A stretch of 37,373 bases of DNA from Trichosphaerium sp. ATCC 40318 (Eukaryota; Protista; Tubulinea): NCBI GenBank assembly GCA_038496445.1, contig JALMLS010000226.1:1-37373 (forward strand). Reading direction: 5' to 3'. Shown here piece after piece: positions 1 to 30,491 of the stretch. The position numbers were made by a program, and so were the translations under genes. Within the stretch, counting starts at the first letter, position 1, and every line of letters starts with the position of its first letter. The notes under the pieces were generated by a model. It ran no database searches, was not told the DNA's origin, and saw only the letters and a program-made list of their open reading frames with translations.

Positions 1-306
1 TTATAAGTATTACCACCAGCAAAGCATTTAATGAAGACAAGTATGAAGCTATTATACATTCTCTTTAAATATTTTTCAGGTGTCCCTAGTGTAAATACGG
101 AGAAACTTATAGTATAGTAGAGCACCTAAAGGTGAATTGGTGTATTTTTAAAATCAAATGGATCTACAAGCCGGTGAGATGTCGAATAAAATCACCAGGT
201 TTTTACACCTTCAGGCATTAGATTCTTTATCTAGCATGGTATGTTAGCAGATATGGTTGCCGTAGTAGGATCTTTAGATTTAGTTTTTGGAGAAATTGAT
301 AGATAA
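1..306 (+). CDS. nad7: NADH dehydrogenase subunit 7, 3' part (duplicate copy; frameshifted cryptogene)
   Basis: Motifs APKGE, RCRIKSPGF and MLADMVAVVGSLDLVFGEIDR* are readable in shifting frames; TAA at 304-306. Inverse of 17492-17795. Confidence 0.93.
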
Positions 307-389
307 GAATTTAAAAAAAATTATTATTGAATTTATATAGTTTAGAAAAAAGAGTAATAAAAAAAAAAAAAAAGTAAAAAAAAAAAAAA

Positions 390-627
390 ATGGAATGACA
401 AATAGTTATTAGCAGCAAAAGTATTAGCAGCAGGAGTATGTACTGTCGGTGTAGGAGGAGCAAGTATAGGTATAGGTATAGTTTTTGGAGGTTTATTAAT
501 AGCAGTAGTATCTAGAAATCCTGAATTAGAAGCTAATTTATTTAGAACAGCACTTTTAGGTTTTGCTTTATCTGAGGCGATGGGTTTATTAGTTTTAATG
601 ATGTCTTTTTTAATTATGTATACATAG
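390..627 (+). CDS. atp9: ATP synthase subunit 9 (duplicate copy)
   Basis: GVGGASIGIGIVFGG..SRNP..LGFALSEAMGL. Has 4 extra nt relative to the intact minus-strand copy, probably sequence errors. Confidence 0.95.
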
Positions 628-647
628 TAAAAAAGACATCATTAAAA
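593..647 (+). terminator. Hairpin with 20-bp arms spanning the atp9 stop codon (possible terminator or processing signal)
   Basis: ttttaatgatgtctttttta ... taaaaaagacatcattaaaa; also present at 17154-17208. Confidence 0.5.
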
Positions 648-852
648 GGATAGTTTATTTTTTATATTAGTAGATATCGCATATATTCTTTGTAGTTCTG
701 TTTTTTTTTTTTTTTTTTTCTATATAAAAAACATCTGTTAGTATAGGGGATTTTATTTTTTTTTTTTATTTAAATCTTTAAATTTTTTTATTAATTTAAA
801 GAGTAAAAAAAAGTAAAAAGTTTTCTATTAGAGTTTTTATTTTTATTATATA

Positions 853-3390
853 TTAAGTATTAAGGGGATTACTAGGTATCAAGAAAAAAGACGCTTTAAT
901 AAAGCGAAAACTTTAATTGAGTAGTACAATGCTATGATTTTTAGGTATCTTTTTAAATTTTTAAAATAGAAAAATAAAAATAGGGAAGTGAAACATCTCA
1001 GTACCTATAAAAAAAACATCGTGTAGAAACGTTAGTAGTGGTGACAAATGCGTTGAGTTCTTTTAAGTAGAGAAAATCGAATAGGCAGTGCCTGCTGCTA
1101 AAGTAAGAATTTTTTGATAACCGATAGTGTAAAAGTACTGTGAAGGAAGTTGAAAAAGATATCGTAGGGATAGTTGAAAAGAAATGAACTTAATACTTTA
1201 AACGGTTGGAGTATAAAAAAAGATATGACAGCGTACTTTTGTATAATGGGCCAATGAGTATATTTTTGAGCAAGCTTAACTTTAAGGGAGCGTAGTGAAA
1301 GCAAAGAGTAAATCTGTAAAAGTCTAAAAAATATGACCGAAACCAAGTGATCTAACAACACCAAGTTTTTGGCTGAAACGGTGTCTGTTGCAAGAGGCTC
1401 GATGAGTGTTGGTTAGGAGTGAAAGCTAATCAAACTTGGTGATAGTGGTTTTCTGCGAAACTTGTTTAAGCAAGCGTATTTTGATTTTGTAGAGTATGGC
1501 ACTAATATTATTCCGGAGTAACTAAGTTATTTACGGGTATAGTGAAACCAAGATGTTATAAAATAAAAAAGTATAGAAAGACTTAGGTGCGAAGATTCTA
1601 GTCGAGAGGGGAAAAAGCCCAGACTATAAGCTAAGCCCTTAAATAATAATCAACTGGAAAGACGTAATAAAAGCGGAGATGGGCTAGAAGCAGCCATTCT
1701 TTAAAGATGCGTAAAAGCTCACGTATTGTTTTTTAAGCGTCATGATGTAAGGGGTCTAAATTATTTGCGAAGCTATAGAATTAATTTGGTAGCAGATGTA
1801 TTGTATGTAAAAAACTGTACGTGAGTTTGGTTAAAATATCAATAGTATAAATGTTGCATGAGTAGCTTTATATGTAAAAACATTATTACGAAAGATTAAG
1901 GTTTCCTTATCTATGTTAAACAGATAAGGGTTAGCGGTCCTTAAGGGAATGTGTTTGTAAGATTCCGACTAAGGTTATATTAGTTATATTCAGAGCAATT
2001 TTATAGAAATTTAATTACAAAAAATAGTTATTGTAATCGTAAAATATCAATTTTTTTGTAACTTACAAGAAAAAAATAAAAAAAAAAACGTACCAATAAC
2101 CGACACAAGGTAATTAGTTGTAGAACAATAAGTAATAGAAGAATAATGCTTAAGGAACTCGCAAAATAACTCAGTAACTTCGGGAGATAGGTACCTAAAA
2201 TATTGTTTTTTAAAATAAATTAAAAGTGAAAATAATTTATTTTTAAGAAGTATTTTGGGGGAAGCGGAACAGAGAAGAGCGACTGTTTACTAAAAACACA
2301 GGACCCTGCTAAATAGTATATGAAGTATAGGTTCGATGCCTGCCCGTGCTGTATCGTGAAAAGGATTTGTTTAAAAGCAATGAATATAAGCAGCAGTAAA
2401 CGCGGCCGTAATCCTTGACGTCTTAAGGTAGCGAAATTCCTAGCTATTAATTGTAGTCCTGCATGAAGCGTAACGACTCTTCTACTGTCTCAAGTGTTAT
2501 TTTAGTGAATTGAAGTTTTCGTGAAGATGCGAAAAAATTGCAGCGGGACGGAAGACCCTGTGCACTTTACTAAAACCTTGTATGGGTTAAGGAAAGCAAA
2601 AAACAGTATAATCAAGAGGTATGATTTAATGGTTTAGGTCATTTAAGGAGCCGTCAGTGGATATTGATTTTTTGTTGGAAAATCTAATCTTAGTAGAAAA
2701 TTAAAAATGCATGGTGGATAGTTTGTCTGGGGCGAAGCTCCCTAAAAGGTAACGGAGTGTACAAAGGCTAATTCAGGACGTTAAAGTTCCGTAGTGCATA
2801 TGGTTTTTATTTTAGCTGACTGTAAGCTTGAAAGGGTTAACAGGGATTTAAAGTCGTCATAGTTTTCCGGATGCGCTTACAGGTAGGGCATCCGCAAACG
2901 GATAAAAGTACGCCAGGGATAACAGCTTATTGCCTTTGAGAGTTCTTATCTGCGAGCGGTTTGGCACCTCGATGTCGGCTCATCTCATCCTGGGGGAGTA
3001 GGCTCCCAAGGGTACGACTGTTCGTCGTTTAAAGAGGTACGTGAGCTGGTTTAGAACGTCGTGAGACAGTTTGCCCCTATCTGCTGTGATAAAAATTAAA
3101 ATTAGAGCCCAATGCAGTACGAGAGAGGCGTTATGGTAATAGGGTGCACCGCTTGTGGTAGCGTTATCGGTTTTACGTTCCGGTTGGCGTTAAAGCTACG
3201 TGCGAAAAAGGAACTGCTGATAACATATAAGTAGAATCTGCTAATTTTAATTTATATTTATGATTCAATATCAGGATTAAATATGGTAGTAAAAAAAATA
3301 TTGTAAAATAATGTTATATATATTTTTTTTACAACTGTAAAAAAAATATATATAAGGTAGTTTTTTTGACTAGATTCCATTAATTAAGTT
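853..3390 (+). rRNA. rnl: Mitochondrial LSU rRNA (duplicate copy)
   Basis: gaagtgaaacatctcagtacc, ccgatagtgtaaaagtactgtgaagga, gactgtttactaaaaacacagg, aaggtagcgaaattcc, ggcacctcgatgtcggctcat, tttagaacgtcgtgagacagtt. Ends approximate. Confidence 0.97.
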
Positions 3391-3452
3391 TTTATAAAAG
3401 TAGAGAAAAAAAGATTTTTAATAAATAAAAAGTATATTATAAATTAAAAATA

Positions 3453-4960
3453 ATGTATTTATTAAGTTTTTATCAATATTTATGTTACATTAAGAGTGGT
3501 CATGTTCAACAAATCATAAAGATATAGGATGCTATATATATGAGCAAGTTTTTTTGGAGGAGTATGGGAACTATATTATCATGATAATACGTATAGAGAA
3601 TTAGGAATGCCTGTCCGTTAATTTTGTTCAAGATAACAAGTTTATAATGTAATCGTAACAGCGCATGTCTATTAATGATTTTTTTTTTCGTTATGCCTTT
3701 ATTAATAGGGGTTTAGGTAATTTTATAGTTCATTAAGTTTAGGGGCCCGGAGATGCATTCCCAAGAGTAAATAATTTAGGTTTCTGATTATTGCGCCTTC
3801 TTTATTATTATTAATGTGATCTTTGTTATAGGAGATGGTGCAGAGCAGGATGAACTTTATATCCATTACTTTCTGTATTAAGGCTAGTCCTGGAATGTCA
3901 TAGATGCTTGTATTTTGAGTTGCATATAGCCGGAATTTCATCAATATCGGTGCAATAAATTTTATGGTAACTATAATGAATATGCGATTATGGATACTTA
4001 TAGAATTGGTTGTTTGCAGTATCATTTATATAACAGCGGTATTATTATTATTGACATTACCTGTTTTAGAGGAGCTTTAGTTATGTTAATAACAGATCGT
4101 ATTTTAATACAACATTTTTTGATCCACAGGAGTGAGATATCCTGTTTTATATCACATATTTTTGATTTTTTTGGACATCAGAGTTTATATATTAATATTA
4201 CCAGCTTTTGTATAACTAGTGTAGTAATTTCTGTTGAACTTATAAAGAGGTTTATGTCATGATTCTATGGTTTATGCATGGTATGTATAGCAGTTTTAGG
4301 ATCTATTGTATGAGTCATCATATGTTTACAGCGGGTTTAGATGATGATACGAGGTATATTTTTATGACAGTAACTATGATAATAGCAATGCCTTCAGGGT
4401 TAAAGTTTTTGGTTGTTATCAACAATAATGTTTGTATAGTAGAAATGAAGAGTTCCGCTATTTTATGCTGCAGATTTGTACTAATGTTTAGTTTTGGAGT
4501 GTAACTGGTATTATTTTAGCAAACGTGTTTTAGATATAGCATTGCATGATACATATTATGTGTTGCTCATTTTCATTATGTTTTATCTTTAGTTCTGTGT
4601 TTGGAATTTTTGCGGGTTTTATCATGGAAGTTCTTTAATGTTTGGAAAAAAATATCCGATTTTATAGGAAGATTACAAATTTTGGGAAATTTTATAGGAG
4701 TAAATATGACTTTTTTGCCAATGCATTTGTTAGGATGGCGGTATGCCCAGAAGGATAGTGATTATCCAGATGCTTATGTTGCTTTAAATTTTTGATGTTC
4801 TGTTGGGCGTTATTTACTATCTGTGTTTATTTTTATTTATTTTATGTTATATTTTATGTCTATAGGAGAGTTTTTATATTTTATATTGTATACTCTTATG
4901 AAGATGCCTATGAGATTTAGTTGAAGATTACTTTTTAACAAAAGAGAGATCTTATTTTTA
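3453..4960 (+). CDS. cox1: Cytochrome c oxidase subunit 1 (duplicate copy; cryptogene with about 40 single-base gaps)
   Basis: STNHKDIG, YNVIVTAH, FPRVNN, GWTLYP, WFFGH(P)EVY, HHMFT, LHDTYY, AHFHYVLS, GMPRR, DYPDAY. 3' end uncertain. Confidence 0.97.
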
Positions 4961-5179
4961 AAGATAATTATAATTTTGGTGAGGATAAAGTTAGAAGTTT
5001 AAATGGTGTATTAGTCTTTAACTGTTTTTATTTTTTCGTGTTAAATCCAAATACAGGAATTTGAGTGTGCAAGTATACCTTTGAATTATGTAAGAAAAGG
5101 ATTGATGGTGTATCTACTCATTATTTGGTGCTTATTAATTTAATGTTTATTTATCTAGAAAGTATAAGAGGTTTTTTTA

Positions 5180-5645
5180 AATGGTTTTGTAGTCATAGAT
5201 AGTTGAAGTTAAAAAAATTTGTATAGTGAAAATAGATAGAAATCTCTACGCTACTCTTCTTTGATTATTTAGTTTTTTAAATTTTATTACGTCTTTTTCT
5301 TTCGTTTTTATGATCTTATAAAGTTTTTATTTTAAATTTTATTTAAAAGGTTTATTTTAGAGTGCGTGTTTTTAAAACATTAAGAAATTACGTAGATAAA
5401 TTTATTTTTTAGGTCATTTTTTATATCTTTTTAGTATGATTAATTTATATAAAGTTTATTATAGAAAATTATAATATGTTTTAGTATATATCTTATATAC
5501 TAAATAATTTTGCGCATATTTTTTGCTTTATAAAAAGTTCATATTTATGGAAAATAGGATTGTGCATCCACAAATTTTAATGAACTAAAAAATAGGAAAA
5601 GTACGTGAAGAGAAGGAAAAAAGGATTACTTTATTATGATTAGTT
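5180..5645 (+). CDS. rpl6: Probable ribosomal protein L6 (duplicate copy; cryptogene)
   Basis: Weak motifs (FKFYLKG..FRVR, FLGH, GKVRE..KG) plus its position just before rps13. Confidence 0.45.
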
Positions 5646-6040
5646 ATGAAAAATTTTATTTTAGTTGGTGTAATATTAAAAGTAAGGAGCAATTTCAGTA
5701 AATTTATCTGCGTTAGGGGGCTTTGTAGACGAAGGGTAGTAGAATATGTTTTAACTTAGGTATATCCCTTGCGAAAATTTGAGCAATTGGAATTTTAGGA
5801 AAGGGATGATTTTAAAGTATTATATTTTTTCTAATTATTATTTAGGTGAAAGGTTATGTGAGAATTAAAAAATATATAGAAGATATACAGATCTTATAGT
5901 AATAGAGGTTAAGTTACTAAGTGGTTACCTGTAAATGTCAACGAAGTAAGACTTGGTTAAAACATCAAATCTTTTAAATTGTGAAGACAAAAGAATTTGG
6001 AACCAAAATTTCAGATGAAATTATAAATGGTAAAATAAAA
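5646..6040 (+). CDS. rps13: Ribosomal protein S13 (duplicate copy; cryptogene)
   Basis: GLPVN(G)QRSKT(N)GKT matches the S13 signature GLPVRGQRTRTNAR. Confidence 0.85.
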
Positions 6041-6117
6041 AATAAAAGAATAACTAAAGACGTTTAAGAAAAAAAAGAAAAGAAAAAAAGAAAAAATAAA
6101 TATATTTAAAGTATATA

Positions 6118-8657
6118 TGCAGCATAAAATAGCGGAATTCTTCATTCTACTATACAAAACATTATTTGTTGATAACAACCAAAACTTAACCCTGAAGGCA
6201 TTGCTATTATCTTAGTTACTGTCATAAAATATACCTCGTATCATCATCTAAACCCGCTGTAAACAATATGATGACTCATACAATTAGATCTAAAACTGCA
6301 TACATACCATGAATAAACCATTAGATTCAGACATAAACTCTTTTATAAGTTCAACAGAAATTACTACCATAGTTTTATAAAAAAGCTGGTAATATTAATA
6401 TATAACTTCTGATGTCCAAAAAAATCAAAAAATCTGTGATATAACATAAAACAGGATCTCACCTCCTGTGGATCAAAAAATGTTGTGATAAAATTTACGA
6501 TCTGTTATTAACATAACTTAAAGCTACCTCTAAAACAGGTATTTGTCAATATAATAATAACCGCTGTTATATAAATGTACTGCTAAACAACCAATTACTA
6601 TAGTATCATAATCGCATTTTCATTATAGTTACCATTAAATTTATTGCACGATATTTTGATGAAATTCCGGCTATAGCAAATCAAAATACAAGCATCTATG
6701 TACATTCCAGGACTAGCCTTAATACAGAAAGTAATGGATATAAATTCATCCTGCTCTGCACCATCTCCTATACAAAGATCACATTAATAATAATAAAGAA
6801 GGCGCAATAATCAGTAACCTAAATTATTTACTCTTGGGAATGCATCTACGGGGCCCATAACTTAATGAAACTATAAAATTACCATAATCCCCTATTAATA
6901 AAGGCATAACGAAAAAAAAATCAATAATAGCATGCGCTGTTACGATTACTTTATAAACTTGTTATCTTGAACCAAAATTAAAGGACAGGCATTCCTATTC
7001 TTATATACAGTATTATTCAGATATATAGTTCCCATACTCCTCCAAAAAAACTTGCTCATAAATATAGCATCCTATATCTTTATGAAATTTGTTGAACATG
7101 ACCACTCTTAATTGTAATCATAAATATTGATAAATACTTATTTAAAATACATTATTTTTAATTTATATTATACTTTTTATTTATTAAATTCTTTTTTTCT
7201 CTACTTTTATTAAAAACTTAAATAATGGAATTAGTCAAAAAAACTTCCTTTTATATATTTTTTTACAGTTGTAAAAAAATATATATAACATTATTTTACA
7301 ATATTTTTTTACTACCATATTTAATCCTGATATTTGAATCATAAATATAAATTAAAATTAGCAGATCCTTTTTTTAACTTATATGTTATCGCAGTTCCTT
7401 TTTCGCACGTAGCTTTAACGCCAACCGGAACGTAAAACCGATAACGCTACCACAAGCGGTGCACCCTATTACCATAAGCCTCTATTCGTACTGAATTGGG
7501 CTCTATTTTTAATTTTTATCACAGAAGATAGGGGCAAACTGTCTCACGACGTTCTAAACCAGCTCACGTACCTCTTTAAACGACGAACAGTCGTACCCTT
7601 GGGAGCATACTCCCCCAGGATGAGATGAGGCGACATCGAGGTGCCAAACCGCTCGCAGATAAGAACTTTCAAAGGCAATAAGCTGTTATCCCTGGCGTAC
7701 TTTTTATCCGTTTGCGGATGCCCTACTGTAAGCCATCCGGAAAAACTTGCGACTTTTAATAATGTTAACCCTTTCTAGCTTACAGTCAGCTAAAAATAAA
7801 AACCATATGCACTACGGAAACTTTAAAGTACTGAATTACCTTTGTACACTCGTGATTACCTTTTAGGGAGCTTTCGCCCCAGACAAAACTATCCACCATG
7901 CATTTTTAATTTTACTTAAGATTAGATTTTTCCAACAAAAAATCAATATTCACTGACGGCTCCTTAAATGACCTAAACCATTAAATCATACCTCTTGATT
8001 ATACGGTTTTTTGCTTTCCTTAACCATACAAGGTTTAGTAAAGTGCACAGGGTCTTCCGTACCCGCTGCAATTTTTTTCGCATCTTCACGAAAACTTCAT
8101 TTCACTAAAATAACACTTGAGACAAGTAGAAGAGTCGTTACGCATTCATGCAGGACTACAATTAATAGCTAGGATTTTCGCTAACCTTAAGACGTCAAGG
8201 ATTACGGCCGCGTTTACTGCTGCTTATATTTCATTGCTTTTAAACTAATCCTTTTCACGATACAGCACGGGCAGGCATCGAACCTATAATTAATTTATAT
8301 TTAGCAGGGTCCTGTGTTTTAGTAAACTGTCGCTATTCTCTGTTCCGCTTCCCCCAAATACTTCTTAAAAATAAATTATTTTACACATTTTATATTTATT
8401 TTAAAAAACAATATTTTAGGTACAATCTACCGAAGTTACTGAGTTATTTTGCGAGTTCCTTAAGCATTATTCTTCTTTACTTATTGTTCTACAACTAATT
8501 ACCTGTGTCGGTTATTGGTACGTTTTTTTTTTTTTTATTTTTTATCTTGTAAGTTACAAAAAATTGATTATTTTTAGGATTAAATAACTAATTTTTTGTA
8601 ATTTAATTTTAATAAAATTGGCTTGAATATAACTAATATAACATTAGTCGGAATCTT
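6118..8657 (-). repeat. Block B: error-rich inverted copy of about 1958-4473 (cox1 5' part and rnl 3' part)
   Basis: Reverse complement of cox1/rnl with scattered extra errors; the junction lies on the shared 5-mer tgcag at 6118-6122. Confidence 0.95.
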
Positions 8658-10850
8658 GAAACCAAGATGTTATAAAAGGAAAAAGTATAGAAAGACTTAG
8701 GTGTTTAAGTCGAGAGGAAAAAGCCCAGACTATAGCTAAGCCCTTAATGTTTTTCAACTGGAAAGACGTAATAAAAGCGGAGATGGGCTAGAAGCAGCCA
8801 TTCTTTAAAGATGCGTAAACTCACGTATTGTTTTTTAAGCGTCATGATGTAAGGGCTCTAAATTATTTGCGAAGCTATAGAATTAATTTGGTAGCAGATG
8901 TATTGTATGTAAAAAACTGTACGTGAGTTTGGTTAAAATATCAATAGTATAAATGTTGCATGAGTAGCTTATATGTAAAAACATTATTACGAAAGATTAA
9001 GGTTTCCTTATCTATGTTAAACAGATAAGGGTTAGCGGTCCTTAAGGGAATGTGTTTGTAAGATTCCGACTAAGGTTATATTAGTTATATTCAGAGCAAT
9101 TTTATAGAAATTTAATTACAAAAAATAGTTATTGTAATCGTAAAATATCAATTTTTTTGTAACTTACAAGAAAAAAATAAAAAAAAAAAACGTACCAATA
9201 ACCGACACAGGTAATTAGTTGTAGAACAATAAGTAATAGAAGAATAATGCTTAAGGAACTCGCAAAATAACTCAGTAACTTCGGGAGATAGGTACCTAAA
9301 ATATTGTTTTTTAAAATAAATTAAAAGTGAAAATAATTTATTTTTTAAGAAGTATTTTGGGGGAAGCGGAACAGAGAAGAGCGACTGTTTACTAAAACAC
9401 AGGACCCTGCTAAATAGTATATGAAGTATAGGTTCGATGCCTGCCCGTGCTGTATCGTGAAAAGGATTTGTTTAAAAGCAATGAATATAAGCAGCAGTAA
9501 ACGCGGCCGTAATCCTTGACGTCTTAAGGTAGCGAAATTCCTAGCTATTAATTGTAGTCCTGCATGAAGCGTAACGACTCTTCTACTGTCTCAAGTGTTA
9601 TTTTAGTGAATTGAAGTTTTCGTGAAGATGCGAAAAAATTGCAGCGGGACGGAAGACCCTGTGCACTTTACTAAAACCTTGTATGGGTTAAGGAAAGCAA
9701 AAACACAGTATAATCAAGAGGTATGATTTAATGGTTTAGGTCATTTAAGGAGCCGTCAGTGGATATTGATTTTTTGTTGGAAAAATCTAATCTTAGTAGA
9801 AATTAAAAATGCATGGTGGATAGTTTGTCTGGGGCGAAGCTCCCTAAAAGGTAACGGAGTGTACAAAGGCTAATTCAGGACGTTAAAGTTCCGTAGTGCA
9901 TATGGTTTTTATTTTAGCTGACTGTAAGCTTGAAAGGGTTAACAGGGATTTAAAGTCGTCATAGTTTTCCGGATGCGCTTACAGGTAGGGCATCCGCAAA
10001 CGGATAAAAGTACGCCAGGGATAACAGCTTATTGCCTTTGAGAGTTCTTATCTGCGAGCGGTTTGGCACCTCGATGTCGGCTCATCTCATCCTGGGGGAG
10101 TAGGCTCCCAAGGGTACGACTGTTCGTCGTTTAAAGAGGTACGTGAGCTGGTTTAGAACGTCGTGAGACAGTTTGCCCCTATCTGCTGTGATAAAAATTA
10201 AAATTAGAGCCCAATGCAGTACGAGAGAGGCGTTATGGTAATAGGGTGCACCGCTTGTGGTAGCGTTATCGGTTTTACGTTCCGGTTGGCGTTAAAGCTA
10301 CGTTTTAAAAAAAATCAAAGTTTTTTAAAAAGTCAAGTAAAAAATACTAATTTTAATTATATTTATGAAAATTTCAGGATTAAATATGGAAGTATAAAAA
10401 AAGTCTCCCCAAATAATGTTATATATATTTTTTCAAGAACAATTAAAAAAAAAGAATATAAAGTTTCTATAAAAAGATTCTCTTTCTTTTTCAAGCATGC
10501 TTATAATTTTATCTTTTCAAATTTCATTTTTACTATCTATTATAGTATATCAATCCATTAAAACAAGTTCATGTATTTTAATATCTTTTCATAAATTTTT
10601 AATAGTTACATTAAGAGTCTTCATGTTCAAAAAATCAAAAAGCATCATAGGATGCTATCATATATGAGCAAGTTTTTTTGGGGAGTATGGGAACTTTATT
10701 ATCATGATAATACGTATAGAATTAGGAAATCTGTCCGTTAATTTGGTTAAATATTAACAAGTTTATAATGATAATCAAAATAGCCATGTTTATTAATTAT
10801 TTTTTTTTTTCGTTATGCCTTTATTAATTTTTTTTTAGGTAATTTTTTAA
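8657..10850 (+). repeat. Block C: direct copy of about 1543-3730 (rnl and start of cox1), degrading after about 10300
   Basis: Starts tgaaaccaagatgttataaa as at 1543; near-identical up to about 10300, then a mosaic. Confidence 0.93.
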
Positions 10851-11619
10851 TTCTACTTTAAATTTACATTTTTTTCACTTATATCATAATTTTCAATTAT
10901 AAATTCTACTCAGCTTAAATTCTCAAACATAACTGACAAATTACTTTCTTATTATTATTCCTTCGTTTTCTAAAGTATAAGTTACAAAATTAAAAAAATC
11001 AGCATCTTGACTTTGCTCAATTTCACCTATATGATCTACTATTTTTTTTTTTTAAACTCTTTATCATTTTGCATAAATAGAATAAAATTATTTATTTCTT
11101 CTAAATTAAGCATAGAATTAATAAAAAAATGATAATAAATAGAACACATAACTAATCATAAGATCATAGAAGCAAACGCACTATAGCTTCAAGTTAAACT
11201 ATATCCTTGGCTAGCTAGTTGCGTATATAGATCTGCTACCACTGTTGGATCTATAGGTACTAAATTGTCTAACTTATCCACTATTTCTTCTCTGCTTTTT
11301 TCTTCATTAAAGAACGTTAAGGTTAAGCCTCCCCCTCGAAGCTTAACCATTCAAAAAAATGAACCCTCCCTTTCGCTAATAAAGCATAATTATTTATCAA
11401 ATCTTCTTTAAAAAAAGGATTATTATAAAATACTAATTCTTTACTAAATAAAAAATAAAATTTAAAAACACTTATAAAACACCCCGCCATGTAATGTATT
11501 GAATTCAATACAAACCAAAGAACCAAAAATGATAGGAGCTCACTTTTTACATATTTCTTTAATATTACAAAATTAAACATGATAATTTTTCTTCTTTTTT
11601 TATATTTTAAACTTAACAA
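10850..11619 (-). CDS. Unassigned ORF with hydrophobic segments, truncated at the fold-back junction
   Basis: Long open stretches (MFNFVILKK...FEGE; EEKSREEIVDKLDNLVPIDPTVVADLY; SAFASMILWLVMCSIYYHFF) with only a few frame breaks. Confidence 0.55.
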
Positions 11620-11749
11620 TACCTATATAAATTACTCTATTACACTACACAAAATACACTGCATATATACTTTAAATATATTTATTTTTCTTCTTTTTCT
11701 TTTTCTTTTTTTTTCTTAAACGTCTTTTAGTTATTCTTTTATTTTTTAT

Positions 11750-12144
11750 TTTACCATTTATAATTTCATCTGAAATTTTGGTTCCAAATTCTTTTGTCTT
11801 CACAATTTAAAAGATTTTGATGTTTTACCATAGTCTTACTTCGTTGACATTTACAGGTAAACCACTTAGTAACTTTAACCTCTATTACTATAAGATCTGT
11901 ATATCTTCTTATATATTTTTTAATTCTCACATAACCTTTCACCTAAATAATAATTAGAAAAAAGATAATACTTTAAAATCATCCCTTTCCTAAAATTCCA
12001 ATTGCTCAAATTTTCGCAAGGCGATATACCTAAGTTAAAACATATTCTACTACCCTTCGTCTACAAAGCCCCCTAACGCAGATAAATTTACTGAAATTGC
12101 TCCTTACTTTTTAATATTACACCAACTAAAATAAAATTTTTCAT
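11750..12144 (-). CDS. rps13: Ribosomal protein S13 (cryptogene)
   Basis: GLPVN(G)QRSKT(N)GKTSK at about 11815-11870; ATG at 12144. Confidence 0.85.
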
Positions 12145-12614
12145 AACTTAATCATAATAAAGTAATCCTTTTTTCCTTCTCTTCACGTACTTTTCCTATT
12201 TTTAGTTCATTAAAATTTGTGGATGCACAATCCTATTTTCCTATATATATGAACTTTTTATAAAGCAAAAAATATGCGCAAAATTATTTAGTATATAAGA
12301 TATATACTAAAACATATTATAATTTTCTATAATAAACTTTTATATAAATTAAATCATACTAAAAAGATATAAAAAATGACCTAAAAATAAATTTATCTAC
12401 GTAATTTCTTATATGTTTAAAAACACGCACTCTAAAACTAAACCTTTTAAATAAAATTTAAAATAAAAACTTTATAAGATCATAAAAACGAAAGAAAAAG
12501 ACGCTAATAAAATTTAAAAAAACTAAATAATCAAAGAAGAGTAGCGTAGAGATTTTCTATCTATTTTCACTATACAAATTTTTTTAACTTCAACTATCTA
12601 TGACTACAAAACCA
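12145..12614 (-). CDS. rpl6: Probable ribosomal protein L6 (cryptogene)
   Basis: Weak motifs plus rpl6-rps13 synteny. Confidence 0.45.
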
Positions 12615-12839
12615 TTTAAAAAAACCTCTTATACTTTCTAGATAAATATAACATTAAATTAATATTAGCACCAAATAATGAGTAGATACACCATCAATCC
12701 TTTTCTTACATAATTCAAAGGTATACTTGCACACTCAAAATTCCTGTATTTGGATTTAACACGAAAAAATAAAAACAGTTAAAGACTAATACACCATTTA
12801 AACTTCTAACTTTATCCTCACCAAAATTATAATTATCTT

Positions 12840-14346
12840 TAAAAATAAGATCTCTCTTTTGTTAAAAAGTAATCTTCAACTAAATCTCATAGGCATCTTC
12901 ATAAGAGTATACAATATAAAATATAAAAACTCTCCTATAGACATAAAATATAACATAAAATAAATAAAAATAAACACAGATAGTAAATAACGCCCAACAG
13001 AACATCAAAAATTTAAAGCAACATAAGCATCTGGATAATCACTATCCTTCTGGGCATACCCGCCATCCTAACAAATGCATTGGCAAAAAAGTCATATTTA
13101 CTCCTATAAAATTTCCCAAAATTGTAATCTTCCTATAAAATCGGATATTTTTTTCCAAACATTAAAGAACTTCAATGATAAAACCCGCAAAAATTCCAAA
13201 CACAGAACTAAAGATAAAACATAATGAAAATGAGCAACACATAATATGTATCATGCAATGCTATATCTAAAACACGTTTGCTAAAATAATACCAGTTACA
13301 CTCCAAAACTAAACATTAGTACAAATCTGCAGCATAAAATAGCGGAACTCTTCATTCTACTATACAAACATTATTGTTGATAACAACCAAAAACTTTAAC
13401 CCTGAAGGCATTGCTATTATCATAGTTACTGTCATAAAATATACCTCGTATCATCATCTAAACCCGCTGTAAACATATGATGACTCATACAATAGATCCT
13501 AAAACTGCTATACATACCATGCATAAACCATAGAATCATGACATAAACCTCTTTATAAGTTCAACAGAAATTACTACACTAGTTATACAAAAGCTGGTAA
13601 TATTAATATATAAACTTCTGATGTCCAAAAAATCAAAAAATATGTGATATAAAACAGGATCTCCACCTCCTGTGGATCAAAAAATGTTGTATTAAAATAC
13701 GATCTGTTATTAACATAACTAAAGCTCCTCTAAAACAGGTAATGTCAATAATAATAATACCGCTGTTATATAAATGATACTGCAAACAACCAATTCTATA
13801 AGTATCCATAATCGCATATTCATTATAGTTACCATAAAATTTATTGCACCGATATTGATGAAATTCCGGCTATATGCAACTCAAAATACAAGCATCTATG
13901 ACATTCCAGGACTAGCCTTAATACAGAAAGTAATGGATATAAAGTTCATCCTGCTCTGCACCATCTCCTATAACAAAGATCACATTAATAATAATAAAGA
14001 AGGCGCAATAATCAGAAACCTAAATTATTTACTCTTGGGAATGCATCTCCGGGGCCCCTAAACTTAATGAACTATAAAATTACCTAAACCCCTATTAATA
14101 AAGGCATAACGAAAAAAAAAATCATTAATAGACATGCGCTGTTACGATTACATTATAAACTTGTTATCTTGAACCAAAATTAACGGACAGGCATTCCTAA
14201 TTCTATACGTATTATCATGATAATATAGTTCCCATACTCCTCCAAAAAAACTTGCTCATATATATAGCATCCTATATCTTTATGATTTGTTGAACATGAC
14301 CACTCTTAATGTAACATAAATATTGATAAAAACTTAATAAATACAT
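12840..14346 (-). CDS. cox1: Cytochrome c oxidase subunit 1 (cryptogene)
   Basis: Canonical cox1 motifs in shifting frames; ATG at 14346; 3' end approximate. Confidence 0.97.
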
Positions 14347-14409
14347 TATTTTTAATTTATAATATACTTTTTATTTATTAAAAATCTTTTTTTTCTCTAC
14401 TTTTATTAA

Positions 14410-16945
14410 AAACTTAATTAATGGAATCTAGTCAAAAAACTACCTTATATATATTTTTTTTACAGTTGTAAAAAAAATATATATAACATTATTTTACAAT
14501 ATTTTTTTTACTACCATATTTAATCCTGATATTGAATCATAAATATAAATTAAAATTAGCAGATTCTACTTATATGTTATCAGCAGTTCCTTTTTCGCAC
14601 GTAGCTTTAACGCCAACCGGAACGTAAAACCGATAACGCTACCACAAGCGGTGCACCCTATTACCATAACGCCTCTCTCGTACTGCATTGGGCTCTAATT
14701 TTAATTTTTATCACAGCAGATAGGGGCAAACTGTCTCACGACGTTCTAAACCAGCTCACGTACCTCTTTAAACGACGAACAGTCGTACCCTTGGGAGCCT
14801 ACTCCCCCAGGATGAGATGAGCCGACATCGAGGTGCCAAACCGCTCGCAGATAAGAACTCTCAAAGGCAATAAGCTGTTATCCCTGGCGTACTTTTATCC
14901 GTTTGCGGATGCCCTACCTGTAAGCGCATCCGGAAAACTATGACGACTTTAAATCCCTGTTAACCCTTTCAAGCTTACAGTCAGCTAAAATAAAAACCAT
15001 ATGCACTACGGAACTTTAACGTCCTGAATTAGCCTTTGTACACTCCGTTACCTTTTAGGGAGCTTCGCCCCAGACAAACTATCCACCATGCATTTTTAAT
15101 TTCTACTAAGATTAGATTTTTCCAACAAAAAATCAATATCCACTGACGGCTCCTTAAATGACCTAAACCATTAAATCATACCTCTTGATTATACTGTGTT
15201 TTTGCTTTCCTTAACCCATACAAGGTTTTAGTAAAGTGCACAGGGTCTTCCGTCCCGCTGCAATTTTTTCGCATCTTCACGAAAACTTCAATTCACTAAA
15301 ATAACACTTGAGACAGTAGAAGAGTCGTTACGCTTCATGCAGGACTACAATTAATAGCTAGGAATTTCGCTACCTTAAGACGTCAAGGATTACGGCCGCG
15401 TTTACTGCTGCTTATATTCATTGCTTTTAAACAAATCCTTTTCACGATACAGCACGGGCAGGCATCGAACCTATACTTCATATACTATTTAGCAGGGTCC
15501 TGTGTTTTAGTAAACAGTCGCTCTTCTCTGTTCCGCTTCCCCCAAAATACTTCTTAAAAATAAATTATTTTCACTTTTAATTTATTTTAAAAAACAATAT
15601 TTTAGGTACCTATCTCCCGAAGTTACTGAGTTATTTTGCGAGTTCCTTAAGCATTATTCTTCTATTACTTATTGTTCTACAACTAATTACCTGTGTCGGT
15701 TATTGGTACGTTTTTTTTTTTTATTTTTTTCTTGTAAGTTACAAAAAAATTGATATTTTACGATTACAATAACTATTTTTTGTAATTAAATTTCTATAAA
15801 ATTGCTCTGAATATAACTAATATAACCTTAGTCGGAATCTTACAAACACATTCCCTTAAGGACCGCTAACCCTTATCTGTTTAACATAGATAAGGAAACC
15901 TTAATCTTTCGTAATAATGTTTTTACATATAAAGCTACTCATGCAACATTTATACTATTGATATTTTAACCAAACTCACGTACAGTTTTTTACATACAAT
16001 ACATCTGCTACCAAATTAATTCTATAGCTTCGCAAATAATTTAGAGCCCCTTACATCATGACGCTTAAAAAACAATACGTGAGCTTTTACGCATCTTTAA
16101 AGAATGGCTGCTTCTAGCCCATCTCCGCTTTTATTACGTCTTTCCAGTTGATTATTATTTAAGGGCTTAGCTTATAGTCTGGGCTTTTTCCCTCTCGACT
16201 AGAATCTTCGCACCTAAGTCTTTCTATACTTTTTTATTTTTATAACATCTTGGTTTCACTATACCCGTAAATAACTTAGTTACTCCGGAATAATATTAGT
16301 GCCATACTCTACAAAATCAAAATACGCTTGCTTAAACAAGTTTCGCAGAAAACCAGCTATCACCAAGTTTGATTAGCTTTCACTCCTAACCAACACTCAT
16401 CGAGCCTCTTGCAACAGACACCGGTTCAGCCAAAAACTTGGTGTTGTTAGATCACTTGGTTTCGGTCATATTTTTTAGACTTTACAGATTTACTCTTTGC
16501 TTTCACTACGCCTCCCTTAAAGTTAAGCTTGCTCAAAAATATACTCATTGGCCCATTATACAAAAGTACGCTGTCATATCTTTTTTATACTCCAACCGTT
16601 AAAGTATTAAGTTCATTTCTTTTCAACTATCCCTACGATATCTTTTTCAACTTCCTTCACAGTACTTTTACACTATCGGTTATCAAAAAATTCTTACTTT
16701 AGCAGCAGGCACTGCCTATTCGATTTTCTCTACTTAAAAGAACTCAACGCATTTGTCACCACTACTAACGTTTCTACACGATGTTTTTTTTATAGGTACT
16801 GAGATGTTTCACTTCCCTATTTTTATTTTTCTATTTTAAAAATTTAAAAAGATACCTAAAAATCATAGCATTGTACTACTCAATTAAAGTTTTCGCTTTA
16901 TTAAAGCGTCTTTTTTCTTGATACCTAGTAATCCCCTTAATACTT
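14410..16945 (-). rRNA. rnl: Mitochondrial LSU rRNA
   Basis: Universal LSU motifs of domains I-VI; ends approximate. Confidence 0.97.
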
Positions 16946-17173
16946 AATATATAATAAAAGTAAAAACTCTAATAGAAAACTTTTACTTTTTTTTACTCTT
17001 TAAATTAATAAAAAAATTTAAAGATTTAAATAAAAAAAAAAAATAAAATCCCCTATACTAACAGATGTTTTTTATATAGAAAAAAAAAAAAAAAAAAAAC
17101 AGAACTACAAAGAATATATGCGATATTCTACTAATATAAAAAATAAACTATCCTTTTAATGATGTCTTTTTTA

Positions 17174-17407
17174 CTATGTATACATAATTAAAAAAGACAT
17201 CATTAAAACTAATAAACCCATCGCCTCAGATAAAGCAAAACCTAAAAGTGCTGTTCTAAATAAATTAGCTTCTAATTCAGGATTTCTAGATACTGCTATT
17301 AATAAACCTCCAAAAACTATACCTATACCTATACTTGCTCCTCCTACACCGACAGTACATACTCCTGCTGCTAATACTTTTGCTGCTAATACTATTTGTC
17401 ATTCCAT
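17174..17407 (-). CDS. atp9: ATP synthase subunit 9, intact 77 aa
   Basis: 234-nt uninterrupted frame with TGA=W: MEWQIVLAAKVLAAGVCTVGVGGASIGIGIVFGGLLIAVSRNPELEANLFRTALLGFALSEAMGLLVLMMSFLIMYT*. Confidence 0.97.
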
Positions 17408-17491
17408 TTTTTTTTTTTTTTTACTTTTTTTTTTTTTTTATTACTCTTTTTTCTAAACTATATAAATTTCAATAATAATTTTTTTAAATTC

Positions 17492-18726
17492 TTATCTATC
17501 AATTTCTCCAAAAACTAAATCTAAAGATCCTACTACGGCAACCATATCTGCTAACATACCATGCTAGATAAAGAATCTAATGCCTGAAGGTGTAAAAACC
17601 TGGTGATTTTATTCGACATCTCACCGGCTTGTAGATCCATTTGATTTTAAAAATACACCAATTCACCTTTAGGTGCTCTACTATACTATAAGTTTCTCCG
17701 TATTTACACTAGGACACCTGAAAAATATTTAAAGAAATGTATTATAGCTTCATACTTGTCTTCATTAAATGCTTTGCTGGTGGTAATACTTATAATTATT
17801 TACTTTAACACTTTGTAATTTAAATTTTACATATATATTAAACACTGCTTAATTATCTTACGCTTTCTTTCATTTCCAAAATACGCAACATAAAACGATC
17901 ATACAATCACCATAAACTCCACAGGTATTTTAAACTTAAGTAAGTTATACACTCGTAAGGTTGCATGATTCTTAAATCTCAACAAAAACCAACGGACTTA
18001 AAATAACTCCAGAAAACCATAATCAACTGCCATCCTAAAAGGTGCTATAGCTATATTTACTAAACGCTGCTAAATATTCTATTATCTCTTATTAAATCTT
18101 CTAATCAAAAATTCTATATATAAATGATTCAAAAAAGATCCTATATCAGATATTAGTGTTGGTGTATATCGTTCACTAAACGCCAGGTCTAAAATATGCT
18201 GCATGAAACCTCGCACTGATACTCTTTCATAAAATTCCAACACCTTTTCCCTTCTTCAAACGCTCAGAGAAAAGGTGTTAATGCACAAGATCTAACGCAT
18301 GTGTTGTTAGAGCAATAAATGATTTAAAATACGTGTTAATCCATAAAAATAACGCGTATACTTTTGCACGTAACGGATACTCACTCCTAATAAATTTCAA
18401 CTGCTTTAACATAAACTTGTTCTTGACCATCATAGATACATATCTAACCTATCAAAATAAGGCAAACTTTGCAAGTAGGTTTATACTCTATTAACTTTTC
18501 AGTACCTCTATGCAATAACCTATATGAGTATCTATTTCAATAACAGTTTCCCATATAATTTTACTACTAGTCTTAATACACCATGAGCTGCTGATGCTGC
18601 GGACCAAAATTTAGTGTTAAAATAGCTACTTTAAAAAAAACACTTGCAAAAACTTGTTTTTTAACGACCCCACATTACTTTAATTTTTCTTGAGTTACGT
18701 AAATAACGTCAAATAAACGTATTCAT
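17492..18726 (-). CDS. nad7: NADH dehydrogenase subunit 7 (cryptogene)
   Basis: LTLNFGPQH(P)AAHGVLRLV, LHRGTEKL, LPYFDRLDYVSM, DLVFGEIDR*. Start approximate. Confidence 0.95.
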
Positions 18727-23719: not shown

Positions 23720-24361
23720 TATTTATATCTCGATTAAATTTAAAAACTCCTCTCATATAAAATTATAAAAAACAAATTTTAACGTCGGTTCTTATGATTT
23801 CTTTCCTAAATAAAGTACTAAATGAAAACAATTTATAACGCAATAATACTCAACTATACCAGCATTTAAAGATAAAGATAGCCTATTTTAAATTTAAATA
23901 AGCTCATAAATTACTTATATATATTTTCTTTTTTAAATATAATTTAGAAATATATACAATTTATTACCTTCCTTATAATAAAAACACCAAATTAATTTAA
24001 ATTTATTATTTATTAGTTTTGTTTCTTATATTTTTGAAGATCTATACATGAAAAACAAACCCACTTCAACCTAATACATATAACTATATAGATCTTCAAA
24101 AATATAAGAAACAAAACTAACAATAAAACAAATCAATTTATACTTTATTTATATATAAATAGTACGTATTCACATAAAAATCGTGTCTTATGTCGTTATA
24201 AAAAAAATCACCATATTAATTCATTTTACATTTTTTCAGTCTATATATTTATATCATAAACACTAACCTTAAGTTTCTTCAAAAAGAATTAAAAAATAAA
24301 TACAACCCTTTCCTAAATTAAAATCACCTTTATATATTTTTTTAAATTGAACTAGTTTCAT
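23720..24361 (-). CDS. Possible ribosomal protein S2 (cryptogene)
   Basis: MKLVQFKKIYKGDFNLGKG start, VYDINID and a C-terminal segment loosely like S2; weak. Confidence 0.3.
24013..24120. repeat. Inverted repeat with about 34-bp arms
   Basis: ttagttttgtttcttatatttttgaagatctata ... tatagatcttcaaaaatataagaaacaaaactaa. Confidence 0.9.
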
Positions 24362-24367
24362 TTTTAA

Positions 24368-24571
24368 AGACAATTGCTCGGCTTAATCAGCTTTTGCTAT
24401 AAATAGAAATAGATTATTTACTAGCTTTTTATTCATAATCTATTTCTATTTATAGCAAAAGCTGATTAAGCCGAGCAATTGTCTTCATGATTTTAAAACC
24501 TGGTTTTTTACATGTAAAAAACCAGGTTTTAAAATCATGAAGACAATTGCTCGGCTTAATCAGCTTTTGCT
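24368..24571. repeat. Nested palindromes / inverted triplication
   Basis: aagacaattgctcggcttaatcagcttttgct occurs in +,-,+ orientation. Confidence 0.92.
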
Positions 24572-27500
24572 TTTCTTCTTTTTTTTTTTTTCCTCCCGTT
24601 TCAATCACATTCAAAATTTTCTAGAAAAACCTTGCGTAAAGAAATTAAGAACATAAGCCTGCTATGTTCAAAACCTTCACTTAAAACTAAACGATAATTT
24701 CTAAAATCATTTAAAGTATTTATATAAGAAAACCTTGGTGAATTAGCTTTAAAAATTGGTTGTGTATTATCCTTAAAATCTAAACGAGCACGTAAATCAC
24801 GTAGAAAGCTTTTACGTAAATTTTTAGCTAAAGTAGCTCGTCTATCAGATAGACGAGCTACTTTAGCTAAAAATTTACGTAAAAGCTTTCTACGTGATTT
24901 ACGTGCTCGTTTAGATTTTAAGGATAATACACAACCAATTTTTAAAGCTAATTCACGCTTCTTTTTAGTTATATCTGAAAATATACCTTTTTTCAATAGA
25001 TAAGATATATAATTATAATAATATACCTTATCATATTTTTTCTTTTTTTTTTTCCTTTTTTTTTCTTTTTTTTTTTTTAGTTTTTTTCTAATAAGATTAT
25101 ATATCTTTAATATTTTCTTAAAAGACCTTATTTTATATACCTTTCCTTTTTTTATTATTTTTTTTTTTTTTTTTTTTTTTTCCTTTTTTTTTAATTTATA
25201 AATTAACTTTTTATCTTTTATACGAAATTTTCTTCATCTTTTCCCATAACCTCTCCTATTATTTCTCTTTTTTTTTATTTTTGCTCATTTTCATGCTTTT
25301 ATTTGACTTTTTTTGAAATAATTATTTTTTTTTCCTCTTTTTAAACTTTTAGTTTTTTTTAAAGTAAACCTTTTTTTATTATTTAAATAATTATTTCAAA
25401 AAAATGATTTAAATAATCTCCCATTAAACGTTTTCTCTATAAAGTTAATACGTCTATTTCTTAATTTTTTTAAATATATAGTTCTTATCTTCTTTTCGTT
25501 TCATTTTTTTCCTTTGTTATATTTTAATCAAAGATTATATTTAATTTTTCTCGATAGTTTTCCACTTTTATCTAAACTTCAAATTAATTTATTATAATAT
25601 AAGCTGTCCCTCGCTAAAAGAGTAGAACGTATTAATATATTCATCATATTATTAAAACCTAGATTATTTGTTGTAACTTTTTTGGTCTTTTTATTTTTCA
25701 TTTGAACCATTGTTTAATAAATCTTATTTCCTTACGTTTACCTTCTTTTTCTCTAAAAGCATTTAATTTTATTTTTTTTATAAGTCTTCATAAACCATAA
25801 ATATCTATACTATGTTTATATTTACGACGTATTAACTGCAATAGTTTGGCTCTACCTTTATTTTTAAATATTATTCAATGACGCCATACTCAAAATAATC
25901 TATCTTTACGATCCTCACCATAAATATATCTTAATTTTCTATAAAATTCTTTTCATTTTTTTTTTTCATTAAAAAACAATCAATTTTTTCCAAATGATTT
26001 TAATTTTAACTATTAGGTAGAAATCATCTTACATTTCTATTTTTTTTAAAATTTACACATTGATTTTTGCTACCAAATAATCATTTTTTATAAAATTTTT
26101 TATTTTGTCACCGTCTTTTTGATATAAATTTTTTAAATTTTACAAAATTTCCTTTTCAAAGGTATGCTAAGTTATTTCGTAATTTAAATAACCAGTTTTT
26201 TTACGCATACGTTTGACAATACGTTGCATAAAAGATCGTGCTGCATTTCTAATGCAGCACGATCTTTTATGCAACGTATTGTCAAACGTATGCGTAAAGC
26301 TTTGACTATTTAACAAAATCCCCCAGCTTTTTTACGTTTTGAGAAATCGACTTTATTATAATAAAGTCGATTTCTCAAAATAAAATTTTTAAAAGATAAC
26401 CTTGTGTTTAAATCAAAAGGTTTATGGAATCGTAAAACGTTTCGCTAGACGCTTTTCCTAAAATTTAGGAAAAGCGTCTAGCGAAACGTTTTACGATTCC
26501 ATAAACCTTTTGATTTAAACGTATTTAATTTTATTTGACAAGATTTAGTTGCTTTGTTTTTAAATAAATTTTGCTTTCAAAATTTATTTATTTTTTTATT
26601 AACCTTTTCCAACATAGCAAAACGCTTCTTTCTACTAATATATTTATACTTTCTCCACTTTTTTTTTCTTTTTTTATATACATTCTTATTTAATACCTTA
26701 TTTTTCTTTATTTTTAATAAACGTTTTTTTTTTAACAATCGTTTTTTCTTTAAAAATCTAATATATTTTTTTTTATTATCTATTATTTTATACTTTATTT
26801 TACCTCACTTTTTTTTTATTAAAACTCATGCTTGTAATCTTCTATTTCTATTTTTTGATTTTTTTTTTTCTTTTTTTTTTAATTTTAATCTTTTACGCCA
26901 TTTTGTACCTAAAATATATCCTCATTCTTTTTTTTTTTTTGCTTTTTTTTTTTTTAGTATTTTACGTATCCCATATCAAAACCATTCTTTTTCTAAATTT
27001 TTTTTTAAACTAACACTTTTTTTTTCTTTTTCATTCTTTTTTTTCCGTTTCATTCTTTTTTTGTTTGCTTTTAAAATTCATCCTTTATAAAAACTATTAT
27101 AATAATTTTTATAAATTTTTCTATATATATTTTTTTTTTCTTCTTTTACTTTTTTCCCTCTTTTTTTATAAATTAAATTTCTTAAGCTTTCTAATTTTTT
27201 TTTTTTTTCTTTTTTTTTTTTTAAGTATAAAAATCTCATTAAATTTTTATACTTAGTTTGTTCTACGTTTTTTCTTTTATTTTTCAATTTAACATAATAA
27301 AAAAAAAGAAGAGATTTTATATTAAATTTGATTCTTCTTTTTTTTCTAATAACTAAAAATTTAAAAAACTTATGATTAAAATTTTTAATCATTTTAATCA
27401 TTTTATTTTTTAATATTAATATCATAAGTTTATTTAACTTATATTTTCTTTTTATTTTCTTAATCTCTTTTTTATATCTTTTTTTTTGCTTTATTATTTT

Positions 27501-28451
27501 TTTAATCTCTTTTTTTATTGCTTTTTTTTTTTTCCTAAGTTTTTTAAAAAATTTTTTTCTTTTTTTTTTAATCTCTTCTTTTTTTTCAATTTTTTTTTGT
27601 TTTATTCTTTCTTGCCTGCGATCTCATGCTCTTTTTTTTCTAAAATAACCTTTTGTATATCTACCTACTAAAAATTTTAATACCTTTTTTTTTTTTTTCT
27701 TTTTTTTTAATATTCTTTTTATTTTATTACCTTGACTTTTTTTGGTTTTTAAAATTTTTATTTTAGAATTAAAAATTTTTATTTTATATTTTACATTAAA
27801 TTTAAATTTTTTCAGAAGCTTCTGAAAAAATTTAAATTTAATGTATTTTTTTTTATAATGTTCTTTTTTTATCTTTTTTATTTTTTCTTTCCTTTTTTTT
27901 GTTTTTTTTTTTCTTTCCTTTCTAAAATATAAAAAATACTGACGTCGTAAGTATTTTTTATATATTTTACTTGGTTTTTTTACTATTCTTTTTATTTTTT
28001 TTAATAAAAACCTTTTTCTAATGTAACGTTTATGAAAAAACAATGAAGGTTTTAAAATTATATTTTTTACGTGATATTTTATTAAGTCAAAGTTTTCTTT
28101 CTTTTTTAGATAGTCAATACACGTTGGACGTACGTCCAACGTGTATTGACTATCTAAAAAAGAAAGAAAACTTTGACTTAATAAAATATCACGTAAAAAA
28201 TATAATTTTAAATTACTTTCTTTAATTTTACTTTTAATTTTACCTACTAAATCAATATTAAAACTAACTTCTTTTCTTTCTTTTAAACATGTATTTATAC
28301 CTTCACTTTTATTTGTTTCTTTTAGATATGTATTTATACCTTCACTTTTATTTGTTTCTTTAAAAAAGATCCTATCGCGATTTTTTAAAGAAATATCCAG
28401 GTTTTTTCTTACTAGTAAAATTAAAGAGACCCAAAGGTTGTTTTTTTTCAC
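24555..28451 (-). CDS. Giant Lys/Arg-rich unassigned ORF (may extend to about 28860)
   Basis: ORF-track pieces 27624-28451, 27078-27425 and 24601-24996 are linked by long stretches that are open when TGA=W; the breaks I saw are few and mostly at homopolymers. Confidence 0.6.
24738..24956. repeat. 219-bp palindrome (109-bp arms, 1-nt loop)
   Basis: Centre ...gtctatc a gatagac... at 24847. Confidence 0.95.
26200..26520. repeat. Three adjacent palindromes: 26200-26298, 26337-26380, 26406-26520
   Basis: Arms of 48, 22 and 57 bp with loops of 3, 0 and 1 nt. Confidence 0.93.
27792..27845. repeat. 54-bp perfect palindrome
   Basis: Centred on cagaag|cttctg. Confidence 0.9.
28051..28212. repeat. 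162-bp perfect palindrome with no loop
   Basis: Centred on ggacgt|acgtcc; the same peptide appears on both strands in the ORF track. Confidence 0.96.
28282..28362. repeat. 39-bp in-frame tandem duplication
   Basis: KETNKSEGINTYL / KETNKSEGINTCL on the minus strand. Confidence 0.9.
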
Positions 28452-28815
28452 AAATAACCTTTGGGTCTCTTTAATTTTACTAGTAAGAAAAAACCTGGAT
28501 ATTTCTTACTAAGGTTATCTAATATTATTTCTTCGCTGGTATACTTAATTTTAAATTAATTTAAAATTAAGTATACCAGCGAAGAAATAATATTAGATAA
28601 CCTTAGTAAGAAATATCCAGGTTTTTTCTTACTAGTAAAATTAAAGAGACCCAAAATTAATGACTTAATTACTATTAAATTTTTATCGATAGGTAAGCGG
28701 GATATAAAGTTTACGTCTCTCTTTTAGTTAACTAAACAAAGACGTAAACTTTATATCCCGCTTACCTATCGATAAAAATTTAATAAAGCGGGATATAAAG
28801 TTTACGTCTTTGTTT
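28388..28815. repeat. Two inverted triplications (about 28388-28654 and 28674-28815)
   Basis: aagaaatatccaggttttttcttactagtaaaattaaagagacccaaa occurs +,-,+; aagcgggatataaagtttacgtct occurs +,-,+. Confidence 0.92.
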
Positions 28816-29646: not shown

Positions 29647-29820
29647 TGTGTTGGAGGATAACGAACAAAAAAAGATTTAAGGGAATGATTTTAAAACTAA
29701 CATATTTAAATATCGCTTATTTTTAGGTTGTTTAAACAACCTAAAAATAAGCGATATTTAAATATGTTAGTTTTAAAATCATTCCCTTAAATCTTTTTTT
29801 GTTCGTTATCCTCCAACACA
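29647..29820. repeat. 174-bp perfect palindrome
   Basis: Centred on ggttgttt|aaacaacc. Confidence 0.95.
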
Positions 29821-29864
29821 TAAATAACCTTTTAAAAAACTTTAATATCTAGATGATTACTCTG

Positions 29865-29936
29865 TATTTTTTTAGAGAATTGTTGCGTTACCAAAAAATT
29901 AATTTTTTGGTAACGCAACAATTCTCTAAAAAAATA
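29865..29936. repeat. 72-bp perfect palindrome
   Basis: Centred on ccaaaaaatt|aattttttgg. Confidence 0.93.
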
Positions 29937-30467: not shown

Positions 30468-30491
30468 AAATAAAAAATATAAAATAAAATA

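Follow-up and report, generated by a model that had tools for sequence, protein, structure and literature searches.

The window, by which we mean the whole stretch of DNA that was analysed (37,373 nucleotides), consists of AT-rich mitochondrial DNA and carries the LSU rRNA, cox1, atp9 and several nad genes. Its first 17.8 kb (positions 1-17795) are composed of one region that occurs four times, in alternating orientation and with unequal error rates. Copies A (1-6122) and D (11659-17795) are 98.7% identical and lie 63 gap letters apart. Copies B (6115-8657) and C (8657-10853) are each about 92% identical to A. The contig of public run X1 differs from the cox1 of copy A by 8 substitutions and 12 gap letters, and copy D agrees with it at every one of them. 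The four copies are probably amplification chimeras within an error-prone assembly. For this reason, the recurrence of the same gaps in copies A, B and C carries little weight by itself, and sequencing error is the first rival to be tested.

Beyond this region, the window is rich in perfect fold-backs that lack a spacer. The interval 23990-34720 contains at least 12 fold-backs, perfect or nearly so, that measure 27-109 bp and have spacers of 0-17 nt, several of them within open reading frames; these are likely amplification artefacts. A search of the whole window detected no tRNA or SSU rRNA genes, although edited tRNA genes could escape such detection. Every Rfam match in 17000-37373 fell under the gathering score, and most of these lay on fold-backs.

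The cox1 cryptogene in short and long form

Each copy of the repeated region contains at least part of cox1. The gene lies on the forward strand in copy A (3453-5138, end approximate) and on the reverse strand in copy D (12659-14346), accompanied by a noisy partial gene on the reverse strand of copy B (6115-7150, start approximate; about 92% identical to A) and a noisy 5' piece on the forward strand of copy C (10570-10853, start approximate). Copy D is the accurate copy and matches the X1 contig; the 12 gap letters and 8 substitutions are errors of copy A. Read from position 3453 on the forward strand, cox1 splits into short in-frame pieces. The reference for its reconstruction was P0001, the full-length Cox1 of a relative, which is encoded on a 1788-nt contig and was retrieved with a mixed-frame piece of cox1. 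A frameshift-aware alignment of copy D with P0001 covers all 581 residues and requires 58 single-base insertions, zero deletions and no amino-acid gap, taking the gene from 1688 nt of DNA to 1746 nt in its edited form. The resulting protein is identical to P0001 at 518 of 581 residues (89%).

The original prediction had described cox1 as a cryptogene in need of about 40 single-base insertions between 3453 and 4800, and 44 of the 58 sites indeed fall within this interval; the gene itself continues to about 5138. The recurrence of gaps that it reported for blocks A, B and D is likewise borne out. The predicted base is missing from copy A at all 57 sites tested, from copy B at 33 of 34 and from copy C at all 8, and the accurate copy D needs all 58.

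TGA encodes tryptophan at 10 of the 14 Trp codons of cox1. At its C-terminus the protein is extended by about 90 residues (4900-5138), a stretch that is conserved in P0001 and shows the same editing density. In the G.PD motif (14060-14040 in copy D, approximately 3740-3760 in copy A), a glutamate common to Cox1 and P0001 replaces the aspartate found in 140 of the 142 sequences compared, one of which lacks the motif; we take this aspartate to be the D-channel entry residue. A metagenome scan with P0001 revealed no close relative, the best 80 of 599 loci all being 45-55% identical. Searches of the PDB returned no close relative either, the Atlas yielded only COX1 clusters of a generic kind, and tblastn in phages found nothing.

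The restored sequence was compared with the assembled contigs of four of 21 listed public runs. X1 and X7 derive from one sample; X5 comes from a different study and X2 from yet another, the material of X2 being DNA only by our guess. Among the remaining listed runs, three carry the label marine metagenome, each with a small share, a mere hint that the organism may be marine. The X1 contig crosses the stretch as a single piece at a depth of 731 and has the short form; the bases that the original prediction took to be missing from the DNA are absent from it. Over 3406-5147, X1 measures 1744 nt and X7 1802 nt, so that X7 exceeds X1 by exactly 58. The seven other letters of X7 consist of five copy-A errors and one inserted G that appears as two substitutions; with these accounted for, no substitution editing is needed. 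In all four long-form records the extra bases coincide with predicted sites, namely 58/58 in X7 and 23/23, 13/13 and 20/20 in three pieces of X5. Conversely, X2 supplies three near-exact pieces, which cover 6, 6 and 10 sites and contain zero extra bases. X2 also holds a relative of about 86% identity, with one additional base over 16 sites. Given that the window, an assembly, shows the short form, and that a whole protein is encoded by the long one, the latter is most likely RNA, X5 being assigned to RNA only by our guess. The gene 3' of cox1 (approximately 5140-5200) also gains a G in X7, near 5171.

Identity and spacing of the inserted bases

Inserted bases could be read directly from 12 of 74 indel rows together with the substitution and loose-end tables. 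All five bases read in this way, four of the 58 in cox1 and one in the next gene, double a neighbour: G at 3495, A at 4153, C at 4179 (within His-Pro-Glu), G at 4686 and G near 5171. Position 4686 was read as a doubling although P0001 had favoured a non-doubling base. Across cox1, no insertion outscores a doubling at 51 of 58 sites (42 of 44 within 3453-4800), compared with 33.9±3.7 and a maximum of 44 in 200 runs of a random-deletion null, which is conservative because it is built on the doubling-filled mRNA. At sites with a single best answer, 23 of 29 are doublings, against 23% under a uniform null or 32% under a G/A-weighted one. Doubling in cox1 thus exceeds chance, and the duplication of a neighbouring base proposed by the original prediction stands above what random deletion yields. 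We infer that all sites obey this rule. P0001 prefers a non-doubling base at six further cox1 sites (4025, 4845, 4877, 4938, 4955 and 5105), and five of these six remaining exceptions fall in the divergent C-terminal part.

Among the 37 unambiguous cox1 sites, 27 gain G (73%), five A, four C and one T. Insertions of G, A and C are represented among the bases read directly; U would be inserted at a single site, deduced from the alignment. For the 44 sites within 3453-4800, the added base comes out as G at 24, C at 3, A at 2 and T at 1, with 14 two- or three-way ambiguities; this preserves the G-richness of the earlier count but does not bear out its 14 A. Two individual assignments changed. The site at 4069, previously thought to receive a non-doubling C and to encode alanine, resolves to a G doubling that encodes glycine as in P0001, and at 3791 the relative favours G (LAP) over the proposed C (LPP).

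The DNA offers a lone base at 31 of the 37 unambiguous sites, and the runs of at least three T, 80 in number, include no unambiguous site. Inspection of flanking base frequencies at 27 edited and 168 unedited G runs disclosed no motif beyond the GGT glycine codon, and the heterolobosean leader decamer is not enriched (10 matches versus 17.9 expected).

The cox1 sites are evenly distributed, with a mean spacing of 29 nt, smallest gaps of 13-16, largest gaps of 49-51 and a coefficient of variation of 0.28-0.31. Random placement gives a coefficient of 0.93, and the observed evenness was reached in 0 of 5000 random runs. Since the segment totals match, hidden cox1 sites are ruled out. In nad7, the smallest gap between sites is 16. 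Random filling with an exclusion of 9 or 13 nt never attains the observed evenness, an exclusion of 15 nt does so in <0.1% of runs and one of 17 nt in 2-3%. An exclusion of approximately 16-17 nt therefore accounts for most of the evenness in cox1. A counting mechanism with an upper limit was also considered and is not established, exclusion alone being nearly enough.

Probably edited and apparently unedited genes along the window

The LSU rRNA gene (841-3296, forward strand; 14504-16959, reverse strand, in copy D) lacks single bases at conserved positions. Relative to E. coli 23S, its well-aligned stretches have 17 single bases missing and 4 extra; doubling could restore 13 of the 17 and not the other four, in a sequence in which 48% of bases lie in runs. 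These gaps suggest that the LSU rRNA is edited too. On the reverse strand at 17494-18661, a nad7 cryptogene aligned with a profile of 120 homologues calls for 33 insertions and three four-base steps. Thirty of the 33 insertions permit doubling, and at three the reference prefers a non-doubling base; in the clean part of the gene, doubling fits 24 of 26 sites versus 12.0±2.5 (maximum 18) in 150 null runs. The three four-base steps are confined to a divergent part (17700-17840) and may represent insertion pairs or assembly errors.

Directly beside nad7, the atp9 gene (17174-17407, reverse strand) is open and apparently unedited. It encodes 77 amino acids and has about 12 GG runs intact. At the rate seen in cox1, the chance of zero sites in atp9 is 0.0003. 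The identical protein is recorded from three sources, with five close variants besides; scans for atp9 gave no match in viral contigs and, in genome contigs, 10 distant ones (41-50%).

Towards the end of the window, all on the reverse strand, lie a frameshifted nad4 core (31743-32789; 33-39 insertions against distant references) and a frameshifted nad2 core (33114-33897; 26 insertions against E. coli NuoN, a rough count). At 34687-36653 lies a conserved open reading frame, 61% identical to the 638-aa protein P0358. This frame of about 1.9 kb is rich in Trp and Lys and essentially unedited, with 0-1 insertion, its single break lying in an A run. It has three relatives among 4 matches (54-61% identical) and no match in Pfam. 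Long open frames (385 and 675 codons) that are rich in Lys, free of frameshifts and without a Pfam match occupy 24556-28505 on the reverse strand; they possibly encode divergent ribosomal proteins and are apparently lightly edited or unedited. An acidic ORF of 345 codons at 30492-31529 (reverse strand) has one fold-back inside and no Pfam match. Calls of rps19, rps3, rpl14, rps13 and nad3 are tentative, their scores of 53-64 standing against a background of up to about 57. Editing across the whole genome, as first proposed, is thus upheld for genes beyond cox1 and by the gaps in the LSU rRNA gene, and fails for atp9 and the 638-codon frame, which need 0-1 insertion.

Proposed mechanism and comparison with known systems

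We postulate that the 58 bases missing from mitochondrial cox1 likely enter the transcript as it is made, through a polymerase that would read one marked template base twice. While transcribing, the enzyme would re-use a single template base once at each fixed site. Because 31 of the 37 unambiguous sites are lone bases, this re-use would need to proceed through a one-base bulge or failed translocation, as opposed to sliding on a homopolymer. No second site could fall within a stretch of about 16 nt around each site, and the exclusion zone suggests that the elongation complex may need an unedited stretch, reminiscent of Physarum. Neither the site signal nor the polymerase was found.

In an unlikely alternative, bases would be added co-transcriptionally without a template, as in Physarum, with doubling a strong bias and not a rule. 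According to the consulted portions of the Physarum literature (PMC3152335, PMC10048350, PMC5192504), editing there inserts approximately 94% C, includes dinucleotide insertions, keeps a minimum spacing of 9 nt and needs about 9 bp on each side of a site. The density of one site per 30 nt and the minimum distance seen here resemble the 25-nt mean and 9-nt minimum of that system, in which non-C insertions often adjoin an identical base, and six cox1 and three nad7 sites score better without doubling. On the other hand, the bases read directly double in five out of five cases, one predicted exception included. Moreover, 875 of 1255 C insertions in the Physarum data consulted are not beside a C, and here G dominates.

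Post-transcriptional insertion by guide RNAs or site-specific proteins appears less probable still. The lack of an evident site motif and the skipping of whole genes are compatible with information supplied in trans. However, guides could specify any base and would leave strict doubling and even spacing unexplained; every predicted site is present in the long-form contigs, though contigs lose rare forms; and the portions consulted of the report on the heterolobosean amoeba BB2 (PMC5421314) state that no guides were found there.

It is very improbable that the long form is itself DNA, from an intact allele, strain or nuclear copy, and that the window holds a decayed copy. X5 may be DNA and the library type of X7 is without record, yet decay would not yield 58 evenly spaced single deletions without substitutions, would not spare atp9 and the 1.9-kb frame, and would not turn up again, with a similar count, in a relative of 86% identity. 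Systematic shortening of homopolymers in long reads is largely refuted. The window is error-prone and probably chimeric, as the gap letters between A and D and the divergence of B and C indicate, but the same bases are missing from X1 and from the exact X2 pieces of another study, the unambiguous sites are mostly lone bases and never T runs of three or more, and the intactness of atp9 and the long frame speaks against an error of the sequencing platform. Translational frameshifting occurs in some protist cox1 genes, but ribosomal frameshifting at every site in place of editing has next to no probability here, since the full-length form is found in sequence data (X7, X5 and the P0001 contig) and the rRNA has the same gaps.

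Template re-use by the polymerase, the reading we prefer, can be set beside several known systems, each described here from the portions of the cited reports that were consulted. As in the MICOTREM editing of Physarum, sites are dense (29-30 nt here, 25 there) and separated by a minimum distance, some ORFs are unedited, and the rRNA, edited in Physarum, is probably edited here. In contrast to the mostly C insertions of Physarum, the majority of which do not adjoin an identical base, the present case features G-rich doubling, C at only 4 of 37 unambiguous sites and a minimum of about 16 nt. Single-base gaps in cox1 DNA were also read as editing in Arcellinida, where they are clade-specific (Oliverio et al. 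2015, PMC4807447). This lead from the original prediction holds in that respect and concerns a different kind of gap, as seven points in 669 bp with inferred C or T compare with 58 G-rich gaps here, and the text consulted describes no doubling rule. Paramyxovirus P-gene stutter shares the re-copying of a template base and the addition of G beside G (PMC5421314). It differs in using a slippery AnGn tract and adding one or more Gs, whereas here exactly one base is added beside lone bases at many sites. Kinetoplastid guide-RNA editing likewise restores cryptogenes via insertion (PMC5421314), but is post-transcriptional, restricted to U and comprises both insertions and deletions, in contrast to the G, A and C inserted here.

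The closest parallel is BB2 (Yang et al. 2017, PMC5421314). The consulted text of that report describes 475 single insertions, all beside an identical base and 84% of them G, in mRNA, rRNA and tRNA and in 43 of 44 genes. It proposes stutter by template re-use, and 0.33% of reads without the inserted base suggest co-transcriptional action. The claim of a new type of editing in the original prediction is therefore superseded, since the same rule and the stutter proposal were published in 2017. Both cases display only single-base insertions that are mostly G and have no flanking motif; in BB2 they all adjoin an identical encoded base, and here they probably do. mRNAs are affected in both, and rRNA presumably so here. 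By the same portions of the BB2 report, they differ in extent. In cox1, 58 sites in 1746 nt compare with 27 in 2016 nt in BB2, that is, one per 30 nt versus one per 75 (about 2.5-fold), and nad7 has at least 33 sites versus 14. Conversely, atp9 has 0 versus 2, and the large ORF 0-1 in 1.9 kb versus 88 in 10.9 kb. The share of G is 73% here (27 of 37) and 84% there. A spacing rule was measured here, and none is reported in the text consulted for BB2. Gene order is shared in that nad2 precedes nad4. TGA encodes Trp here, and the BB2 text lists only trnW(cca). Identity of the source organism with BB2 was ruled out by the differing gene lengths and site counts.

Pleurostomum and its close relatives among the heteroloboseans are cited as using the universal code, and the use of TGA for Trp disagrees with the code cited for other heteroloboseans. 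In trees of cox1 and nad7, the sequences form a long branch, with BB2 not among the named matches, and both genes branch beside groups, each of which has a member on a contig of 59,819 nt where reading frames are open. FastTree supports are 0.947 and 0.901, on long branches; IQ-TREE recovers the same neighbours with no support value at the node. The best named match of nad7, Vermamoeba (65-66% identical), lies in another branch. It may tentatively be suggested, with slightly less than even weight, that base doubling arose a second, independent time in a protist lineage unrelated to BB2. There it would operate at near-saturating density, re-copy at sites at least about 16 nt apart, be switched off for whole genes such as atp9, and be shared by several relatives, so that the birth and loss of sites could be traced. 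If the lineage is not that of BB2, phage-type mitochondrial polymerases would have evolved programmed re-copying twice.

A literature search that extended outside subscription journals and preprint supplements found no description of editing in this organism, and among the papers retrieved a single organism stands behind doubling-type editing. For the present case, both forms are available from one sample, further data come from a second study, and there are relatives to compare: a contig of 86% identity that has about as many gaps, a Cox1 of 89% identity and six variants of atp9. With these relatives, a measurable spacing rule, and edited and unedited genes that adjoin (nad7, atp9, rnl), site recognition and turnover become testable by comparison. 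Genes edited in the manner of cox1 are invisible to gene callers and resemble long-read errors. As a whole, the kind of editing is already known from BB2, and the case described here is a denser, evenly spaced form of it.
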